A DNA stretch of 64,000 bases from a virus (taxonomy: Duplodnaviria > Caudoviricetes). The notes under the pieces were generated by a model. That model ran no database searches and was not told the DNA's origin. It saw nothing but the letters and a program-made list of their open reading frames with translations. Position numbers and translations under genes: made by a program. Positions 1 to 10,003 of this stretch are shown piece by piece. The DNA is taken from the IMG/VR virus record IMGVR_UViG_3300028048_001915, positions 1 through 64,000 of that record; one strand, written 5' to 3'. Each line of letters begins with the position of its first letter. Within the stretch, counting starts at the first letter, position 1.

Positions 1-913
1 ATGTATGTTCTCTTAATTTTTTATTTTTTTCAGTAAATGCTTCCGATACAGATATTTGTTGTAATTGACCTTTAAAAAACTTTTTTTTACTTGAAAATAA
101 TGAATCTTCTTTTGTTAATTCTAAATTCATATGACTTCTTTTATTTTTTTTAGGAATATACTCGTAATAGATTTTTCTTAAATTTTGTAATATCAAGTTT
201 GATGTTTCTGGATCATTAAATGTGTGGCAAGGTATTTTGAATCGTTGTGTTTTGTGGGGGTGGAATTTCCAGGAACCTATCATGTCTTGCGGGGCATTTT
301 TCACGAAGTCATCTAATGTTATGCAGTTATGGTATTTTGATGTTGCTTTCATGAAATCCCCCCATGTGAGAGATAATGCGTCTGTTATTCTCATCCCTGT
401 TGATTGTAAGAATTTTATTAAGCTACTGTGTGTTAGTGGTGCATCTGCCATTACAAATTTAAAATCTTCTTTGGATAATAAATTCCATTTGGGGGTTGTT
501 TCGTTTAGTTTGTCAAATGAAGGGATTTTGATGTTATAAAAGTTTAGTATTGCTGTGATTAGTACAAGATAGTTGTTAATGGAGCTTGTTGCTAGTGATT
601 GTTTGCAGTATGAGATGAATTTGTTAATGTAATTGTTTATATATGAGTCTGGACTGTTTATGTCGAATGATATTATTTGTTTTTCTACTATTCTGTTTCC
701 TTCAGTGTCTTCGCCTATGTTTATTGTTTTTTCTATTATTCTGTCTTGTTGTGTTTTGCAGTTGTTTATTATGGTGGTTAGTGTTTCGTTTGTGGCTTGG
801 TGGAGTTTTGTTAGTGCGGATATGTATTGTTTTTTTGTTTTTTCAGATAGATTGGGTTTGCTTCTTAAAAAATTTTGGAATAATTCATCTTCTATGATTT
901 TATAATTTTGCAT
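1..913 (-). CDS. Tyrosine recombinase/integrase, truncated at the left window edge (not in the ORF track)
   Basis: Manual translation from ATG at 913 (upstream AGGTGG SD-like) stays open to position 1: MQNYKIIEDELFQNFLRSKPNLSEKTKKQYISAL...LIKFLQSTGMRITDALSLTWGDF...KFHPHKTQRFK. Contains the box I TGxRxxD/E motif and an N-terminal core-binding-like segment. Confidence 0.85.
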   Translation of the reverse strand, partial: MQNYKIIEDELFQNFLRSKPNLSEKTKKQYISALTKLHQATNETLTTIINNCKTQQDRIIEKTINIGEDTEGNRIVEKQIISFDINSPDSYINNYINKFISYCKQSLATSSINNYLVLITAILNFYNIKIPSFDKLNETTPKWNLLSKEDFKFVMADAPLTHSSLIKFLQSTGMRITDALSLTWGDFMKATSKYHNCITLDDFVKNAPQDMIGSWKFHPHKTQRFKIPCHTFNDPETSNLILQNLRKIYYEYIPKKNKRSHMNLELTKEDSLFSSKKKFFKGQLQQISVSEAFTEKNKKLREHT

Positions 914-1146
914 TTTTTTTTCAACCACCTTTTTTTTGTTATAATAGATTATTTATTGTAGGTGGTTTTTATATTTTTGTTAAGATATTTTCTAGTAGTT
1001 ATCTTATTCATGTTTAAGTTATTTCTAAACGATATCTTATTAATGTATTGTTTTTAAGTTTTGGTTTTTTGGTGTGTTTTTTGTTTATAACTCTAAATTT
1101 CACTAAAAGTGAACAAAATATAACAATGTGATTATGCATTATTTAT

Positions 1147-1180
1147 AAAAAAAAGACCAGGTCAAAACAATGACCCGGTC
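1147..1180 (-). terminator. Hairpin plus T-tract downstream of the 1230..2267 recombinase
   Basis: Minus strand GACCGGGTCA-TTGTTT-TGACCTGGTC followed by T8. Confidence 0.55.
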
Positions 1181-1229
1181 CATGCTGTGATAATATAACA
1201 TATAATCACATCAAGTATATAAAAATTAC

Positions 1230-2267
1230 TCACAAAATATTCAACTCCTTACCAGACAAAAAAATATTAACATTAATAGTAAACTCCTGATTCACCACAT
1301 CAGGCACATCATTAGCATTAATCATAACATTACCCATAACATCCATATAAATCTTCTTCAACCGCTTAGGATTAGTCTTAATATAAGTCTCATGAATAAC
1401 ATTCTTACTCCTACCCTGCAAACTATCAACATACTCAGCAGCTAATCCAATATTAGAAGCATGAAACTTACGCAAACTATGACTACGGAAAAACCTATAA
1501 TTACCTTTAAAACCCCAACCCATACGGTCATTAATCTCCTGAAACCTCAACAATAACCTTGATGGAGTAAAATCAAACAACTTATCAGACAACTTCAAAT
1601 CTTCCCTAGTCTTCAAATACTTAATAATATAATCCGTAGCTTCAGGACTACAAAAAGTATAATAATACTTATCAGTCTTAATCCTCTTCAAATACAAAGT
1701 AGGAACAACATTATGCTTATTACTTAAAGTATCAAGAATATAATCCAAAGAACCACCAGTATGATAATCTTGACAACCTATAATAAATTGTTCAACAGTT
1801 AAAGATAATGTTTCAGCTTTAGCAGTACCACTACTGGACATGAATAAAATAACTGCTTTCAAATCAATAGAAGAAATATCTAACGCTTCTCGGATATGAT
1901 GCTTACTTGGAAGATCTAAATAGTTAATTTCATAATCAATATCATATTTAGCTTGCGGAAGATTAGGAATGGTAACTTCAAAATGATTATAAACAGTTTT
2001 AATCTTTTGAATATAAGTCTTCAAAGTATTATGTGACATTTTACTATCAAATAAGAAATTACGATAAGATATTAATCTTTTTTTCAATTTTCTATCCTTC
2101 AATGGTATTTTTTCTTCTTCCTCATGTAATGCTTCATCAATCAAATATTCTAGTGAATGCTTTTGAACTTTAACATAATGTTGAATAGCTGACTGATATC
2201 CTTTACGAGTACTCTCTTTTATATGTCGTTCTTTACAGAATTTATTGAATATTTTTTCATTATACAT
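1230..2267 (-). CDS. Tyrosine recombinase (archaeal integrase-like); candidate cassette invertase
   Basis: 345 aa with ILFMSSSGTAKAETLSL (box I region), KRIKT, HSLRKF (HxxR), LQGR and HETY (catalytic Tyr). Confidence 0.85.
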   Translation of the reverse strand: MYNEKIFNKFCKERHIKESTRKGYQSAIQHYVKVQKHSLEYLIDEALHEEEEKIPLKDRKLKKRLISYRNFLFDSKMSHNTLKTYIQKIKTVYNHFEVTIPNLPQAKYDIDYEINYLDLPSKHHIREALDISSIDLKAVILFMSSSGTAKAETLSLTVEQFIIGCQDYHTGGSLDYILDTLSNKHNVVPTLYLKRIKTDKYYYTFCSPEATDYIIKYLKTREDLKLSDKLFDFTPSRLLLRFQEINDRMGWGFKGNYRFFRSHSLRKFHASNIGLAAEYVDSLQGRSKNVIHETYIKTNPKRLKKIYMDVMGNVMINANDVPDVVNQEFTINVNIFLSGKELNIL

Positions 2268-2502: not shown

Positions 2503-3798
2503 TTACCTATATAAGTTTTCAAGGAACCATGAAGGATTTACAGCCCAAGTAGTACCATCAAGACACCAACAATAAGTAACACCTTGACCATTATCAGACA
2601 ACACTGCTGCAGGGTCACGGTTGATCCATTGACCACCTGTGTTAGTTGGATGTCTGAATTGTAATCTGACATGCCCGTCCCCACCACGGCAACCAACATG
2701 TATACACCTGACATCATAACCTAATGCTTTTGCTATATGCCAGAACCAATGGCATAAATCAGTACAATTAGCACCTAACCATTTATACACTCTATTCGCA
2801 GTTTCCTTGTTGGTGTAACGGTCATCATAGTAATAAGCATAACCTCTACCATTAACTTTAGCTAATGCACCATCGATAGTAGATACTTCACCAAATTTTG
2901 CTTCAAAATCTTCAAGTATTTGTTGTTCATAACTCTTTGGTTGTGGTTTTGGTGCTTCTTTAATATTGATTTTATTTTCAACACTTGATGATGCATATTT
3001 GTTGTTACCTGTGAATTCTGCACGAAGAATATAACTTCCTGGTTGTAAGTTAATATTCAATTTATATAATCCTTCACTGTTTGGTGTTTTCTTATATGTG
3101 ACCCCGTTAACTGTGATGTTTACAGTTCCAGCAACTCGTTCATCACCAGAATATACAGCACATTGGTATGGAGTATCTTCACCATAAGTTTTATTGATAT
3201 CAGTTCCTTCCATTCTTGTAGGTTTTGGAGGTTCTTCATCTATATGTATCTTATTCTTTTTGGTGATTCCAGCACATTTTGTAAGTATTTCATAATCTCC
3301 TTTCACAAGATTAATAGGTAAAACAGCTAATCCATTTTTATCAGTGATTCTTTCATAAGATATACTGTTAACAATAAAAATAATTTTAGCATTAACTATT
3401 TTTTGATGATTAATATCAGATAATACTGCTTGGAATTTACTACCATCTTTTTCCCTCATGTTTAAATCACAAGTTCCAATTATTGGATTAACAGTTACTT
3501 TACAATAAGCATTCACATAATTATAATCATCATCAACAAACTCAATTTTAGGATCATAAGAACCCACAGGTAAATTAATATTCAATCTACTAATACCATT
3601 ACTATCAGTTTTCCTTTGATAAGTAACACCATTAATCTCAATAGTAACATTCTTATCAGATAATGGAGTATTACCTTCAAACAAACCTATTTCTAAAGGG
3701 TCCTTTTCACCAAAAGTTTTAGTTAAATCCTTTGTGATTAAACGAGCATTCTTTTTATTATTACCAAATAAATTTTTTAAAAAATCTAAAAAACTCAT
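2503..3798 (-). CDS. Endolysin, pseudomurein endoisopeptidase (PeiW/PeiP-like C71 peptidase) with N-terminal Ig-like repeats
   Basis: C-terminal GANCTDLC...GYDVRCIHVGCRGGDGHVRLQF...WINRDPAAVL gives the Cys-His-Asp pattern of Pei enzymes. The N-terminus has three Methanobrevibacter adhesin-type Ig-like repeats (TIxxNGVTYxxxTxxxG...LNINL). Confidence 0.85.
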   Translation of the reverse strand: MSFLDFLKNLFGNNKKNARLITKDLTKTFGEKDPLEIGLFEGNTPLSDKNVTIEINGVTYQRKTDSNGISRLNINLPVGSYDPKIEFVDDDYNYVNAYCKVTVNPIIGTCDLNMREKDGSKFQAVLSDINHQKIVNAKIIFIVNSISYERITDKNGLAVLPINLVKGDYEILTKCAGITKKNKIHIDEEPPKPTRMEGTDINKTYGEDTPYQCAVYSGDERVAGTVNITVNGVTYKKTPNSEGLYKLNINLQPGSYILRAEFTGNNKYASSSVENKINIKEAPKPQPKSYEQQILEDFEAKFGEVSTIDGALAKVNGRGYAYYYDDRYTNKETANRVYKWLGANCTDLCHWFWHIAKALGYDVRCIHVGCRGGDGHVRLQFRHPTNTGGQWINRDPAAVLSDNGQGVTYCWCLDGTTWAVNPSWFLENLYR

Positions 3799-3947: not shown

Positions 3948-4214
3948 TTATTTCGGATTTTTAGGGATGGTTATTTTTTCTTCTTCTTCGTTTACAATTG
4001 CTTTAACGATTGTTCTTTTTCCTGTTGGTGTGAATCCGCAGATTGCTGTTCCGTCATTGTTGGTGAGGGTTTCAGCTAGTAATTCATCATCTTTTTCAAA
4101 TCTTATTCTTGTTGATGGTGAATCGGTTTCTGCGGTGATTTCGATTATTTCTATTTCGATTATTTCTTCTTCTTCAAATTCTTCTTTTTTTAATTCGTAT
4201 TTTAAGTTTATCAT
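3948..4214 (-). CDS. Hypothetical acidic protein (88 aa; start revised from 4304 to 4214)
   Basis: GAGGT SD upstream of ATG at 4214 (MINLKYELKKEEF...). Confidence 0.6.
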   Translation of the reverse strand: MINLKYELKKEEFEEEEIIEIEIIEITAETDSPSTRIRFEKDDELLAETLTNNDGTAICGFTPTGKRTIVKAIVNEEEEKITIPKNPK

Positions 4215-4290
4215 TTTTCTTTGATACCTCAGTTTAATTTTTTTTCTGTTGAGTTTTGTATGAGATATGAACATGATTTTGGTGATGATT

Positions 4291-4725
4291 GTGAAAGATA
4301 ACAATAACTTATTAGATTACAATCAATGGTGTGCAGATTATGATAAAAATGAAAACATATTTTATCATGGTGCAGGAATGAAGGTACAATGCAGTAATGA
4401 AATATCAAGCATTGGAGAAAATTCATTCAAAACAATACAAATAGGAACAACGCAGTTATGGGCAGAAGTTAGAAAAACTTCTAATAATACACAATTCACT
4501 GGTGTTATTGATGTTTATAATCCGAATAATACTGGTAATTTTATAATGGTATTAACATATACCGATAATACTCAATCATCAACAAATATCTATATTCCCC
4601 CGTCAGAGGTTTTACAAAAAGATATTAGTTGTAATATTGATGCAATAAATGGTAAAACTGTATCCTATGTTTCATTAAGAGTTTCATTAGATAAGGGTTA
4701 TATTGATAATTTAAGATTAAATTAA
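4291..4725 (+). CDS. Variable cassette 1 (CBM4/9-like beta-sandwich, 144 aa)
   Basis: VKDNNNLLDYNQW...SIGENSFKTI...YIDNLRL; starts at site 4291, preceded by GGTGATGATT. Confidence 0.8.
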   Translation: MKDNNNLLDYNQWCADYDKNENIFYHGAGMKVQCSNEISSIGENSFKTIQIGTTQLWAEVRKTSNNTQFTGVIDVYNPNNTGNFIMVLTYTDNTQSSTNIYIPPSEVLQKDISCNIDAINGKTVSYVSLRVSLDKGYIDNLRLN

Positions 4726-4729
4726 ATCT

Positions 4730-5173
4730 GTGAAAGAAAACCAAAACACACTAGGCTATAATGTATGGAGTGCAAGCGAATATAAAAACAACCTAGAAGA
4801 TATATACTATATCCCAAACACGGTAAAAGCCAATCCGAGTACCATATGGTCTACTATAGGTGAACAATCACTACATCTAACAACCACTACAGACGGTTTT
4901 CAAGCAGTAATCATTAAACAAATAACCTCAACAAGTAATAAAACTCTAATTGTAAACTGTGATATACTACATCAAAAAGGAGGTACCTGCCAATTAAGAA
5001 TGGTTGAAACAGGAAATATATATACTGAGGTTAATATTCCAGTAAACAGTGATACACAACACATTAGTTTATCCAAACAGACAACAGTAGATGGTACTGT
5101 TCAAGTAATATTAATTTTAAGGAGTAATACTGATGAGATATATATTGATAATATTAGTTTAACTACTAGTTAA
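4730..5173 (+). CDS. Variable cassette 2 (147 aa)
   Basis: VKENQNTLGYNVWSASEY...TIGEQSLHL...YIDNISL. Confidence 0.8.
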   Translation: MKENQNTLGYNVWSASEYKNNLEDIYYIPNTVKANPSTIWSTIGEQSLHLTTTTDGFQAVIIKQITSTSNKTLIVNCDILHQKGGTCQLRMVETGNIYTEVNIPVNSDTQHISLSKQTTVDGTVQVILILRSNTDEIYIDNISLTTS

Positions 5174-5575
5174 CACCATATCATCAATAAATAAATCATC
5201 AGAACCATAATTCAACAAACGAATACGACAATTACTTAAATCACTAAAAGAACCGGATAAACTAAAACTAGTGAAAGAATCAGTTACTGGAATACCAATA
5301 TCGGCCATTATATCATTATTCTGTAACAACCTTAATACTGCAACCGCCCCTGATTTATTTAATATTTTACAAGATAATGTATATTGACCGGTACGTGGTA
5401 GAGAAATTGTTGTATCACTCCACCAACGACTGCTTGTTCTTTTTGCTCTTATAGAATATTCTCCAATGGATGAATATTTGTTTGTTAATTCTGCTTCGTT
5501 GTAAAATCCGTTTATTCCATTATAATCCCCACAACCCCATTGATTATAACTTAGTATGTTATTGGTATCTTTCAC
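5159..5575 (-). CDS. Variable cassette 3 (138 aa)
   Basis: VKDTNNILSYNQWGCGDY...SIGEYSIRA...FIDDMVL; converges on cassette 2. Confidence 0.8.
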   Translation of the reverse strand: MKDTNNILSYNQWGCGDYNGINGFYNEAELTNKYSSIGEYSIRAKRTSSRWWSDTTISLPRTGQYTLSCKILNKSGAVAVLRLLQNNDIMADIGIPVTDSFTSFSLSGSFSDLSNCRIRLLNYGSDDLFIDDMVLTSS

Positions 5576-5581
5576 AGACTA

Positions 5582-6052
5582 TTAATGTAACCTAAAATTG
5601 GTACTGTAAATAGTACCATTACTAACAGATGGCATAATCCGGAATTGTAACTGTGTTTCACCACCAACAAACTCATTTGAATTAATACTTATTGATGGAG
5701 AAGTATTGCTACCGGCGGGAATGGTCAATGTTTTAACAATAGTATTTGTACCTGAAGAAATATTTCTTGCAATGAAATATAATATTACATTTACAGTAGT
5801 GTAAATATCTACCTGCATAGTATAATTCTTATTTGTATTTGGGTTATTATCCATTAATACTATGTATTGAGGATTATCTACTTTTTGCATTATGGAATAC
5901 TCACCAATTGAAGAATAATTATCAGAATAAGTATATCCATCATCATTAGTAGTTGCAGATAATTTGAAATCCTCATATGTTCCCCGCGGTACTTTACCAA
6001 GGTATTCTGGTGTCCATAATTCATGGGGTAGTATATTGTTGGTATCTTTCAC
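5582..6052 (-). CDS. Variable cassette 4 (156 aa)
   Basis: VKDTNNILPHELWTPEY...SIGEYSIMQ...YSTNFRL. Confidence 0.8.
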   Translation of the reverse strand: MKDTNNILPHELWTPEYLGKVPRGTYEDFKLSATTNDDGYTYSDNYSSIGEYSIMQKVDNPQYIVLMDNNPNTNKNYTMQVDIYTTVNVILYFIARNISSGTNTIVKTLTIPAGSNTSPSISINSNEFVGGETQLQFRIMPSVSNGTIYSTNFRLH

Positions 6053-6055
6053 AAA

Positions 6056-6502
6056 CTATACACTTATCAATCTCCAATCATCTGATAAAACATAACCTGA
6101 AGCATTAGATAGTACACGATATACAACAGTAGTGGTTGATGATGGGATACTCATAGACAAAGAAACATCACCAACAAAATCTGATGGAATATTAATATGT
6201 TGGTCTGTCCATTCCTCATTGTTAAATAAACTAATACATAACTTATGGACTCCATTATATGCATTTTTAGTGTTTACATTTACTGTGAACATAACTGTTT
6301 TCCCAACACCCAATGTTCCTCTTGCATCTATATAAAAATTTCCTGTATCTTGTTTTTTTATTTTCATACAAGATTCGCCAATCTCTGAATATTGGTTTGT
6401 TATATCTGATGAGCAGTTTATTTTGGTATAGTCCTTGAGGTTTTCATTATATTCTCCACATGTCCAAATATTATGTGGGAATAGGTTATTGTTATCTTTC
6501 AC
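6056..6502 (-). CDS. Variable cassette 5 (148 aa)
   Basis: VKDNNNLFPHNIWTCGEY...EIGESCMKI...LSDDWRL. Confidence 0.8.
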   Translation of the reverse strand: MKDNNNLFPHNIWTCGEYNENLKDYTKINCSSDITNQYSEIGESCMKIKKQDTGNFYIDARGTLGVGKTVMFTVNVNTKNAYNGVHKLCISLFNNEEWTDQHINIPSDFVGDVSLSMSIPSSTTTVVYRVLSNASGYVLSDDWRLISV

Positions 6503-6960
6503 TAACTTACACTTAATGATATATCATCAACAAATGTAAGACAACCAATATCACCATAATTAGTTATGTTAATCGCATATGTAGTTGCAGTATTATTCGC
6601 AGGAATATTCAGTGATACAGTAACTGGAATATTAGGAGATATTACATCCAGTAAAGTGGAATCTACAATTTCACCATTTGAATTAGTGGAATATAAGATT
6701 ATTGTTGTATTTTTATTAGAGTTAGATAATACTGTTAATTTTCCAGTTACAATACCTGTTAATGTTCCATGATATTCTACTCTGAAACCTGTTTGAGTTG
6801 ATCCTAATTTGGTTGCCTTTAAACTTGATTCCCCGATTTTTGACCAGGTATTTGTTGATTCTCTTCTTGTTCCAATTCCGCCCAGAAATCCAGTTGTACT
6901 TAGAGTATATTCGGTACATGACCATTGGTCATGTGTTAATAGATTACTAGTATCTTTCAC
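6502..6960 (-). CDS. Variable cassette 6 (152 aa)
   Basis: VKDTSNLLTHDQWSCTEY...KIGESSLKA...FVDDISL. Confidence 0.8.
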   Translation of the reverse strand: MKDTSNLLTHDQWSCTEYTLSTTGFLGGIGTRRESTNTWSKIGESSLKATKLGSTQTGFRVEYHGTLTGIVTGKLTVLSNSNKNTTIILYSTNSNGEIVDSTLLDVISPNIPVTVSLNIPANNTATTYAINITNYGDIGCLTFVDDISLSVS

Positions 6961-7400
6961 TAACTTACAGTAATATTAATATCATCAACATAGCAAACAC
7001 CAATATCCATAGAAACAAAGAGTAATCTAATAGAATTAGAATGAGGAGTAAATGAAATAATGTGTTGATTAAAACTTTTATTAACAGGTATATTAGTAAT
7101 TACCACTTCAGATATGTCATTATTATTTTGTAATCTCATATCTAATGAGTTATTATTCGGATTATAAACCATTACTTTTGCAGTTATTGTTTTTTCTTCT
7201 TCAAGTGTAATATCTAAATAGGAATAATTTAATATGGAATTTTTTGTTTTTATTTTATAACTTTTTTCACCATTGTATGATGCATCAGATGAACTATTAA
7301 TTATAATTTCATTATTTCTTGCTTTTAAATCTGATGATATATTATTATATTCTGATCCACTCCAAATATTATATGATAGTAGATTACTGGTATCTTTCAC
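6960..7400 (-). CDS. Variable cassette 7 (146 aa)
   Basis: VKDTSNLLSYNIWSGSEY...YNGEKSYKI...YVDDINI. Confidence 0.8.
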   Translation of the reverse strand: MKDTSNLLSYNIWSGSEYNNISSDLKARNNEIIINSSSDASYNGEKSYKIKTKNSILNYSYLDITLEEEKTITAKVMVYNPNNNSLDMRLQNNNDISEVVITNIPVNKSFNQHIISFTPHSNSIRLLFVSMDIGVCYVDDINITVS

Positions 7401-7849
7401 TAACTTATACTTAAATATAAATCATCAATATACATAGAAGAATATTTATCACCATGATTAGAGAATTGAATTCCAAATCTAGAATTATCATTACCCGAAT
7501 TTAAAGAAACAGTAAATACAGCACAACTACCAGCAGGTATTGTAACTCTATTTGTAGTAATAATATTATTTCCGGAGATTTCAATTAATATTAGTTCACC
7601 AGAATTATTTGTTTTAATCATAGCTGATGCAGTTACTGTTTTATTAATTATACTATTATCATATGATACTCTTGCATATGTACCAGAATCAGCTTTTTTG
7701 GTTAATTTTATTGATTGTTCACCAATACTTGAATAGTCATTTGTACATATACGATCTGTCATGGGTGCTGTATAAAATATTTCAGGATAGTTTTCATATT
7801 CACCAGCACTCCATTGATTATGAGATAGTAAGTTATTGTTATCTTTCAC
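7400..7849 (-). CDS. Variable cassette 8 (149 aa)
   Basis: VKDNNNLLSHNQWSAGEY...SIGEQSIKL...YIDDLYL. Confidence 0.8.
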   Translation of the reverse strand: MKDNNNLLSHNQWSAGEYENYPEIFYTAPMTDRICTNDYSSIGEQSIKLTKKADSGTYARVSYDNSIINKTVTASAMIKTNNSGELILIEISGNNIITTNRVTIPAGSCAVFTVSLNSGNDNSRFGIQFSNHGDKYSSMYIDDLYLSIS

Positions 7850-8298
7850 TAACTTAAACTTATATTATCAATATAAAATGATTTATTCTCAGTACGTGGG
7901 AACACACGAATACTAATATTACCTCCCGAATATATTGATGTATCACCAGTAACACTAATTTCGACAGGCTTATCATTCATTGGAACATTAACATAAGCAA
8001 TATTATGTGCTGTTGTTGTGTGGAATAAATTAATCATTACATCACATTCTGGAGTATATATTATAAATTTACCTGTGATTGTTTTGTTTGGATTAGTTAT
8101 TTTGAATAAATCAATATTGACCCATGAGGGAATGTTTTTTGTTGTTATTTTTAAACTTGATTCTCCAATATTTGAAAAATCGTTTGATTGGTTTATTATG
8201 ATATTGTTTGGGCTGTTATTGTAAATGTTTGTTGTATCGTGATTATACTCTGTAGCTGACCAAACATTATAATCTAATAGGTTATTGTTATCTTTCAC
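7849..8298 (-). CDS. Variable cassette 9 (149 aa)
   Basis: VKDNNNLLDYNVWSATEY...NIGESSLKI...YIDNISL. Confidence 0.8.
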   Translation of the reverse strand: MKDNNNLLDYNVWSATEYNHDTTNIYNNSPNNIIINQSNDFSNIGESSLKITTKNIPSWVNIDLFKITNPNKTITGKFIIYTPECDVMINLFHTTTAHNIAYVNVPMNDKPVEISVTGDTSIYSGGNISIRVFPRTENKSFYIDNISLS

Positions 8299-8738
8299 TA
8301 ACTCACAGTTGAAATAATATTATCAACATACACCGAACCAATACCATCAATAAACATTCTTAAACCCATATTACCATAATTGACTGGGATAACCCCAGTA
8401 ACACTTACATGTTTACTATTATCTGATGGAGGTACAGTTATTGTAGTAATATTAGAATTATTATCACTTTTTAATCTACATCTAACAGATACAGTCGGAT
8501 TATACATAACTAATGAAATAGTAAATGTTTTACCCTCTGTTAGTCCAGTTATTTTTTGCAGTTCCATAAACTCATTTGCCTGCGCACATGTTATTTTTAA
8601 ACTGTTTTCCCCAATACTTGAAAAATCATTAGAGGGTATTAATTGGATATTCTCTGTTTTATCAAAATCATCAGTATTGTTATTGTATTCTGTACATGAC
8701 CATACATTATAATTGTATAGATTATTTGTATCTTTCAC
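8298..8738 (-). CDS. Variable cassette 10 (146 aa)
   Basis: VKDTNNLYNYNVWSCTEY...SIGENSLKI...YVDNIIS. Confidence 0.8.
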   Translation of the reverse strand: MKDTNNLYNYNVWSCTEYNNNTDDFDKTENIQLIPSNDFSSIGENSLKITCAQANEFMELQKITGLTEGKTFTISLVMYNPTVSVRCRLKSDNNSNITTITVPPSDNSKHVSVTGVIPVNYGNMGLRMFIDGIGSVYVDNIISTVS

Positions 8739-10003
8739 TAAGTTATAATCAACTTTATATTATCAACAAATAACTTTGTATCTGCAACATTATTGAAAAA
8801 ACGCAACTTTAAATCTTCACTAAATGAAGATGGCGTAGTAAAAGATAATTCGATATGTTGAACAAATTTATTACCATACACATAAACACGACCTAATTCC
8901 CCGCCTAATGAAATAGTACATACAAAATATTCTTCAGGACAATATGTATCAAAAGAAATTACATATGTAGTGTTTTTTTGTAAAATATTTTTAGTAATGT
9001 AAAATAAGACATAATTCCAGTTTACAGAATGGGGTTGAATATATTCTATACAATTTTCACCAATAATACTAAAATTATTTGAGTATATTAAATTCCCATT
9101 TGTACCAGATACTGGTGTATCGTATTCTCCACAACTCCAAAGATTAAAATCTAACAAGTTATTTGTATCTTTCACAAACACGGTTAATATTTGGCTTCTT
9201 ATGACAGACCCGTTAATTGTTGCTTCAGCATAAACATAATAAATACCAGGACTCCAAACAACCTGTGAATCAGACCAATTTTCGAAATAATACTTATAAT
9301 TCATCATACTTTGATTACGAGAATCATCATTTAATTTATATATAGATTCTCCAATTACAGTACCATCAATTAATTTAAAAGTAATTTTAGAAGTATTTGA
9401 TGTTTGTGCCACACCATTTTTATAAATCATACCACCTAACACAAAATGAGCGCCTACTCCCAACCAATCCTTACTATTAGTTACTGCTAATCTATTCTTA
9501 TCATCAGAAAAAGTAACTGAAGTTGAATTATTAAAACACGCATCATCAGCATCACCACTAAGATTTCCTCTAGCTCCTTTCAAATCTAAAGTATAATAAT
9601 TATCCCCCGCACCATTCTCCATATAGTTGATTAATCGTCCTATGTTTATACGGTCTTTATTAGTGAAACTTGTAATCTTCGCTTGTGTTTCCACTTCATT
9701 CTGCTTAGTATCCAAAACAGTCTTCACACCACCACTAGCCACAGCATTACTACTGGAATCAGTAGGACTACTATCCACCTTAACATGACCATAATTTGAT
9801 GCTGAACCCACACCATAAGTAGTACCAGAAGATGCATGGCTGGTAGGTGCACGACTAGTATCTACTGGATGCACATGGTCAGCCCTAGCAATCAAATCAC
9901 TAGAACCCGCAGACTGAGTACCATTCATTTTACTATTAGACGCCGTACTATTCAATTTAGATTTTAACCAATTACTTAAATTAGCTGTATATTTTTTAAC
10001 CAT
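8738..10003 (-). CDS. Tail fibre / receptor-binding protein: constant N-terminus (aa 1-276) plus the currently fused cassette 11 (aa 277-421)
   Basis: Tail-fibre motifs ARADHVHP and YGVGSASNYGHVKV. At codon 277 (nt 9175) the frame reads TVF-VKDTNNLLDFNLWSCGEY...IIGENCIE...FVDNIKL, the same domain as cassettes 1-10. Confidence 0.85.
   Translation of the reverse strand: MVKKYTANLSNWLKSKLNSTASNSKMNGTQSAGSSDLIARADHVHPVDTSRAPTSHASSGTTYGVGSASNYGHVKVDSSPTDSSSNAVASGGVKTVLDTKQNEVETQAKITSFTNKDRINIGRLINYMENGAGDNYYTLDLKGARGNLSGDADDACFNNSTSVTFSDDKNRLAVTNSKDWLGVGAHFVLGGMIYKNGVAQTSNTSKITFKLIDGTVIGESIYKLNDDSRNQSMMNYKYYFENWSDSQVVWSPGIYYVYAEATINGSVIRSQILTVFVKDTNNLLDFNLWSCGEYDTPVSGTNGNLIYSNNFSIIGENCIEYIQPHSVNWNYVLFYITKNILQKNTTYVISFDTYCPEEYFVCTISLGGELGRVYVYGNKFVQHIELSFTTPSSFSEDLKLRFFNNVADTKLFVDNIKLIIT

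Follow-up and report, generated by a model that had tools for sequence, protein, structure and literature searches.

A probable multiple-inversion switch for the receptor-binding tip of the tail fibre in a head-tailed virus of Methanobrevibacter

The virus record IMGVR_UViG_3300028048_001915 (87,267 bp), of which bases 1-64000 form the stretch of DNA analysed here ('the window'), contains a tail-fibre gene with an array of silent cassettes beside it. This locus most probably acts as a shufflon, a switch based on multiple inversions, that determines which receptor-binding tip the fibre of a head-tailed Methanobrevibacter virus carries, a reading to which sequence comparison lends a probability of roughly 0.87. 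The fibre would consist of a constant N-terminal part joined to one of eleven alternative tips of about 145 amino acids, predicted to share a carbohydrate-binding module (CBM) fold, each of which starts with the asymmetric 8-mer GTGAAAGA in the same frame. A tyrosine recombinase would recombine the expressed site with any inverted site by strand exchange inside this core, and the inversion would flip the intervening DNA and fuse a different tip to the constant part. Cassettes in the direct orientation would need one prior inversion, and every tip would be reachable in two steps at most. The likely outcome is a virus population with mixed receptor specificities. The parts of the array are as follows:

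8738..10003, minus strand: tail-fibre gene, an open reading frame of 421 codons
9176..10003, minus strand: constant N-terminal part (codons 1-276), with homologs at 92-94% identity that bear other C-terminal cassettes (P0001-P0003)
9166..9175, minus strand: expressed recombination site S0 (GTGAAAGATA), the invariant 8-mer of which is 9168-9175
8738..9175, minus strand: cassette C1, now fused to the constant region, 145 amino acids and a stop codon in an open frame from the site
5159..8738, minus strand: silent cassettes C2-C9, in the same orientation as C1, with sites at 8738, 8298, 7849, 7400, 6960, 6502, 6052 and 5575
4730..5173, plus strand: inverted cassette C10, with the in-frame site variant GTGAAAGAAAACCAAAAC ('VKENQN'), beside the 3'-3' centre
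4291..4725, plus strand: inverted distal cassette C11 (cassette 'A' in relatives), with an in-frame site
5159..5173, no strand: fixed array centre, the convergent 3'-3' overlap of C9 and C10; overlaps of 11-15 nucleotides lie at the same place in L012, L020, L023 and L024
3799..4290, no strand: fixed distal flank with a small conserved gene; the same flank adjoins the outermost site in the window, L073-L076 and L024, and the cassettes joined to it differ

An earlier, sequence-only reading of the window placed the tail-fibre gene at 8738..10003 and the site at codon 277 (nucleotide 9175), and both coordinates are exact: GTGAAAGATAC occupies 9165-9175 and codon 277 begins at 9175. The same reading counted ten further domains of 138-156 amino acids, eight on the minus and two on the plus strand, that diverge strongly past their first codons, and this description holds as well. 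The 11 sites (nine on the minus strand, two on the plus strand) each open an uninterrupted in-frame cassette of 138-156 codons; all cassettes start with V-K-D/E-T/N-N/S/Q-N, and beyond the first ~13 residues, protein identity between them is 22-28%. The constant part is related to phage tail-fibre proteins, with more distant homologs that bear Phage_fiber_2 or Phage_fiber_rpt domains, and genes beside the tail-fibre gene match PTR and tail-fibre families.

The site, with the 8-mer as its core, takes the form GTGAAAGA(W)A in this virus. GTGAAAGAWA occurs 14 times in the 87-kb genome, and 11 of these copies fall within the 4.9-kb array, where 0.19 copies of the 8-mer would be expected; chance does not account for the sites. 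GTG accounts for only 9% of the valine codons of the virus, and the probability that codon usage alone places GTG AAA at all 11 sites is about 8e-13; because GTG is a rare valine codon here, its invariance reflects selection on DNA rather than on protein. The 8-mer is invariant at 57 of 57 sites (those of the window and of six related arrays), approximately 16 bases to its right are conserved roughly as codons require, and to its left, conservation is limited to T-T/C-A/T. Many silent sites read GTTA-GTGAAAGA-TAAC, that is, a short dyad surrounds the asymmetric core. Three copies of GTGAAAGATAT lie beyond the array, all on the minus strand (20365, 38448 and 48262), and no cassette-like context was seen at any of the three.

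Inversion between the expressed site and an inverted one had been predicted, from the window alone, to fuse another cassette in frame to the constant part, and such fusions occur in related viruses (contigs and loci labelled L, proteins labelled P). Constant parts 92-94% identical to that of the window bear different tips, one of which, in L011/P0003, is a homolog of the silent cassette C5 (site 7400). The contigs L012 and L013 share 96.3% identity with the window across 7.6 kb of tail genes, and their expressed tip is a homolog of the distal cassette C11, 4291..4725 (99.3% identity at the amino acid and 98.7% at the nucleotide level), the homology beginning at one site and stopping at the next. 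Two inversions convert the order of the window into that of L012, and the argument that every cassette can be reached in at most two inversions is correct. Cassette C6 is 100% identical in amino acid sequence in L012, and C9, C2 and C8 have homologs in other arrays. The silent cassette H of L012 (L012:8865-9261) lacks 23 nucleotides right after GTGAAAGA and, because of this deletion, would be out of frame if recombined; H is intact in L073-L078.

Cassette order and orientation differ among relatives, as the sequence-only reading had led one to expect. An exact look-up of C6 retrieved nineteen contigs. In L073, L075 and L076, the flank is followed by J K A H E F G B D C, which run up against an oppositely oriented I; in L074, L077 and L078, A H E F G B D C meet I in the same convergent manner, and beyond it come K and J in inverted orientation, then the flank, the lysin gene Pei and the recombinase gene Rec2. 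L074 matches L073 at 100.000% identity over 3,099 nucleotides in the plus orientation and at 99.70% over 5,289 nucleotides in the minus orientation; therefore, the block from A to C with the converging I is inverted relative to K, J, flank, Pei and Rec2. The end of cassette K joins A in the isomer of the L073 type and I in that of the L074 type. In L078, the block is flanked on both sides by 47 nucleotides of the K end in inverted orientation; in L075, the K-A junction is inside the contig and 55 nucleotides of the inverted K end follow I; in L074, 21 nucleotides of the K end precede A at the start of the contig and the I-K junction is inside. Because each of these three contigs bears both alternative junctions, both orientations appear to be present in the respective samples. 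Two other contig ends were considered as alternative junctions and discarded: the end of L018 (34 nucleotides of constant region and an inverted cassette) folds back on itself, and the end of contig C90, of the same genome, is only 93.6% like the expressed cassette and is not a clean junction.

A second pair of arrays differs in the same manner. L020 comprises the constant part, eleven direct cassettes and one inverted cassette, and L023 comprises the constant part, one direct cassette and fourteen inverted ones (15 in total); the 3.5-kb array core is 99.5% identical between the two yet inverted, with both flanks collinear at 96-98%. Cassette A (C11) is found behind three left flanks, namely, the distal flank (window and L071), the constant region (L012 and L013) and the K end (L073, L075 and L076). 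Whichever arrays are compared, what lies to the left of the site (constant region, distal flank or cassette end) is fixed and the right side is exchanged at base 1 of GTGAAAGA; the strand exchange itself would presumably take place within the 8-mer.

Recombination between inverted sites alone imposes rules on cassette order, and these were checked in every array examined. All arrays have the direct cassettes before the inverted ones; in all of them, the tail-to-tail centre pair stays together, although it may flip as a pair; and each has one VKENQN-type cassette, always beside the centre. One or more inverted distal cassettes are present in each related array whose sequence extends beyond the centre.

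GTGAAAGA cassettes are also present in two further IMG/VR viruses with a constant region ~34% identical to that of the window, as a multi-cassette array in L064-L066 (IMGVR_UViG_3300021540_000004) and as a single constant-part-site-cassette junction in a short stretch of L061 (IMGVR_UViG_3300019375_000008); the system thus spans several virus lineages. A search of a phage collection gave no match, and when contigs of viral, metagenome and genome origin were scanned with the constant region, the matches were few or distant.

The virus has only two genes for tyrosine recombinases, both within 4 kb of the array, and no match to the Resolvase family (PF00239) was detected in the whole 87-kb record, although control genomes did match:

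1230..2267, minus strand: Rec2, atypical tyrosine recombinase, candidate invertase and possibly also integrase, matching phrog_1 (E 3.7e-11)
1..913, minus strand: Rec1, second tyrosine recombinase, 453 amino acids, running across the circular junction, matching Phage_integrase and phrog_1

Rec1, which is intact only via the far-end copy of a 130-bp overlap between the record ends, is 99.6% identical to a 453-amino-acid gene product of L029 and bears the canonical TGMRITD motif. Rec2 is the sole recombinase common to every array-bearing lineage examined, with orthologs at 61-83% identity. The other recombinase can be exchanged: in L027 and L029, Rec2 is 99.7% identical and yet has different partners, L027 encoding a different type of integrase in place of Rec1, and no second recombinase was found beside Rec2 in L073. 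The Rec2 family is unusual in that an invariant SSGTAKAE places alanine opposite the first catalytic arginine of XerA (5hxy) and departs from the 'TGxRxxE' box of canonical tyrosine recombinases (R-K-H-R-H/W-Y), in a profile match that is itself weak (E 8e-4); the HxxR box and the nucleophilic tyrosine are retained, as the invariant HSLR and ETY motifs of the 17 members align to HVLR and QIY of XerA. The family also has LQGR where most tyrosine recombinases have GH. The odds that Rec2 is the invertase, possibly with a dual role, seem about even, and a host enzyme of the same family is an alternative candidate.

Outside the arrays, six of the 13 loci with a Rec2 homolog have the layout hsdS-Rec2-hsdS (inverted), with inverted repeats of 150-200 nucleotides. 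These hsdS-flanked chromosomal orthologs come from Methanobacteriaceae and are 59-70% identical (L058:257-3387, L059:20-3138, L050, L053, L054 and L056); no GTGAAAGA was found in the 20-kb L058 locus. By analogy, such loci in methanogens are probable phase-variable restriction-modification switches. Tentatively, and with considerably less confidence than in the shufflon itself, one can imagine a Methanobrevibacter-wide family of the Rec2 type that, without the first catalytic arginine, inverts hsdS in chromosomes and tail-fibre tips (5 to 15 cassettes) in viruses and possibly also integrates the virus, the tips being site-bounded modules drawn from a common stock and passed between virus lineages whose fibre shafts differ.

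Several observations weigh against the shufflon as reconstructed here. Members of the Rec2 family are encoded in 56 of 201 Methanobacteriaceae genomes and cassettes in only two of the 201, so the family is not array-specific, and in the integrated L073 and L074, Rec2 is the last viral gene before host DNA (an M42 peptidase gene). The mixed orientations within samples are an assembly-level result that rests on contig ends shorter than the assembler word length. No isomer of the window's own genome was found: its only near-identical contig, L071 (99.994%), has the same cassette order, and an exact look-up produced no record of C1 as a silent stand-alone gene. The L020-type array has the same order in four samples, which suggests that switching is infrequent and, at the least, too slow to scramble consensus assemblies. 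Finally, L020 and inverted L023 differ by three single-cassette indels located exactly at sites, so deletion or insertion also happens, and nine of the window's sites are direct. The window's own genome would, by inference, switch as well.

An integrase gene and its attachment site are usually located at the end of the viral genes, next to host DNA, and Rec2 may also be the integrase. Homology between L073/L074 and the window stops about 85-130 nucleotides past the Rec2 stop codon (window 929-1229; L074:7947-8155; L073:3593-3801), and no tRNA gene was found at the host junction of L073 and L074 on the side of the M42 aminopeptidase gene. The window stretch 929-1229, which may be an attachment site, contains a GC-rich hairpin and a TTCAC-N5-GTGAA dyad.

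The constancy of cassette order in the four samples, and in the window and L071, is what would be expected if the cassettes were static paralogous small genes, each translated from its own GTG by stop-start coupling into a free sugar-binding protein, with the rearrangements being rare accidents of homologous recombination. All silent cassettes start with GTG that the preceding stop codon overlaps or abuts, and the lack of intergenic spacers implies co-transcription with the fibre gene. We nevertheless consider this explanation very unlikely. The GTG AAA GA sequence is no less invariant at the expressed site, which is internal to the gene and does not require a start codon, and no Shine-Dalgarno-like motif was seen upstream of the silent cassettes. 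The break points fall in an 8-bp core that is too short for homologous recombination, every complete array has at least one inverted cassette at its far end, and the isomers are 99.7-100% identical, with both junctions present in single assemblies.

The indels between L020 and L023 could be taken to indicate that the cassettes move in an integron-like manner, mainly by excision and re-insertion at direct sites or by exchange between co-infecting viruses, with inversion as a by-product. The same cassette does occur with different neighbours and constant regions (C2 is K00 of L020, C8 is K12 of L023, and P0001 and P0010 share a tip). Such movement would, however, leave unexplained the conserved inverted distal block, the flipped centre pair and the inversion of whole blocks in near-identical genomes; as the principal process it is very unlikely, and it is better seen as a slower, second process on the same sites. 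It is hardly credible that the repeated sites misled the assembly and thereby produced the opposite orientations: although the evidence comes entirely from metagenome assemblies and one contig (L018) ends in a fold-back with constant-region sequence in both directions, the shared repeat of 8-40 nucleotides cannot by itself misjoin contigs because it is far below the assembler words of 127-141 nucleotides in the contig records, the isomers recur across independent samples and assemblers (L073, L075 and L076 vs L074, L077, L078 and L012), and natural in-frame fusions are called as proteins in separate data sets.

The structure that AlphaFold predicts for C1 from 39 aligned cassettes (pLDDT 88) matches modules of the CBM4, CBM16 and CBM22 families (1gui, 8xmz and 2zey; E 5e-8 to 5e-7, TM 0.53-0.63), and the Pfam family CBM_4_9 matches C1 weakly (E 0.002, 19 bits, below the curated cut-off of 25.9 bits). 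The cassettes are, accordingly, predicted to have a fold of the CBM4/16/22 type, and the natural reading of this model is a sugar-binding, receptor-recognition tip. Swapping such tips by DNA inversion would likely serve as a host-range switch.

The distal flank has features of its own. The small gene at 3957-4214 (minus strand) encodes a protein of 85-91 amino acids, stands directly after the array in three lineages and has no family match; its product is 53% identical to a 91-amino-acid protein of L024 and 38% identical to an 84-amino-acid protein of L023, and its sequence suggests a small beta-sandwich domain. At 4267-4725 (plus strand), the flank provides an ATG eight codons before the outermost inverted cassette and a GGTGA motif before the cassette GTG, so whichever cassette occupies this position might be made as a free protein of ~150 amino acids. 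The flank in the L020/L023 lineage lacks this upstream feature.

A stretch of 130/131 bp, with a single-nucleotide indel, is common to the two ends of the record (window 1-130 vs 87137-87267 of the record, G000), so the genome is complete, and either circular or terminally redundant. It encodes the large terminase, portal, protease, capsid and tail proteins, and a lysin beyond the array:

2503..3798, minus strand: pseudomurein endoisopeptidase (Pei-like lysin), matching Peptidase_C71 (E 1e-8) and phrog_37889

The Pei-like lysin points to a host with a pseudomurein wall, and Methanobrevibacter is the annotation on close homologs of the virus genes, including the neighbouring ones; taken together with the structural genes, this indicates a head-tailed virus of a Methanobrevibacter-like methanogen. 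The catalytic domain of the lysin differs at the same position between otherwise similar viruses, being Peptidase_C71 in the window (2503-3798) and Peptidase_C39 in L073:5084-6403. In some relatives with identical Rec2 (L027:811-1104), a gene for a 97-amino-acid HNH_3 protein lies between the lysin and Rec2; it is not found in the window.

To our knowledge, very little is known about host recognition by methanogen viruses, and the principal source of methane in ruminants and the human gut is Methanobrevibacter. A virus with 11 to 15 interchangeable sugar-binding tips could track the variation of the host cell surface, which bears on virus-host dynamics in the rumen and on the use of such viruses or their binding domains against methanogens. 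The cassettes would also provide a ready-made natural collection of binding domains directed at pseudomurein-type cell surfaces. The locus also is a compact archaeal system, with an 8-bp core, a small recombinase and a clear read-out, that is suited to the study of inversion by an unusual tyrosine recombinase.

Whether such a switch is new was left open by the sequence-only reading, and the answer is twofold. No report of a shufflon in a methanogen virus was found in a full-text literature search that did not reach the main survey (Medvedeva et al. 2023), but the design has precedents in Rin, Min, R64 and phiCh1. Among known systems, the nearest is Rin, a shufflon from prophages integrated in dnaJ2 of Bifidobacterium; it consists of a constant receptor-binding protein gene, Rc, and five Rv cassettes with 6-30% identity, and in it a tyrosine recombinase encoded beside the array causes inversions within an 11-bp rix site, TTCCCTAACCC (Mavrich et al. 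2018, PMC6109161). Like the array described here, Rin is phage-encoded and combines the constant part of a receptor-binding gene with dissimilar C-terminal cassettes, a short asymmetric site before each and a nearby tyrosine recombinase. The two differ in the host, which is bacterial for Rin, in the number of cassettes (five vs 11 here and up to 15 in relatives), in the site (TTCCCTAACCC vs GTGAAAGA) and in the tips (TP901-1-like vs CBM-like). Further differences are that Rec2 lacks the first catalytic arginine, is encoded beyond the lysin gene and may also integrate.

Among archaeal viruses, the tail fibre of the Natrialba magadii virus phiCh1 undergoes phase variation through Int1, as related in the papers that cite the original work (Rossler 2004 and Klein 2012, cited in PMC8371274 and PMC10791045). 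So far as those accounts go, the likeness is that inversion by a tyrosine recombinase in an archaeal head-tailed virus varies a sugar-binding tail-fibre protein. phiCh1 swaps the ends of two oppositely oriented full genes by way of repeat clusters and is not known to possess an array of promoterless cassettes. The host of phiCh1 is haloarchaeal.

Plasmid R64 (Rci, pilV) similarly uses multiple inversion by a tyrosine recombinase to join a constant 5' part to alternative 3' ends. In the R64 sites, the core and the right arm are conserved and the left arm is not, a pattern shared by the sites described here. R64 differs in being a conjugative plasmid that varies a pilus adhesin, with four segments giving seven ends, and no direct relationship between archaeal tyrosine recombinases and Rci is reported (PMC8371274). 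In p15B Min, Mu Gin and P1 Cin, the C-termini of tail fibres are swapped by inversion at in-frame sites, with multiple inversion in Min, but these enzymes are serine invertases, and a Resolvase-family gene is absent from the virus described here. In Type I restriction-modification systems, hsdS switches driven by invertases have been described as 'epigenetic invertons' with tyrosine invertases of the PsrA/CreX type (PMC7672463); the chromosomal Rec2 orthologs, which sit between opposed hsdS genes that share inverted repeats, resemble these switches, and the tail-fibre array differs from them in its target gene and sites. Compared with these systems, the present one differs in the host domain, the number of cassettes, the sequence of the site, the CBM-type tips, and the unusual recombinase family with its link to hsdS.

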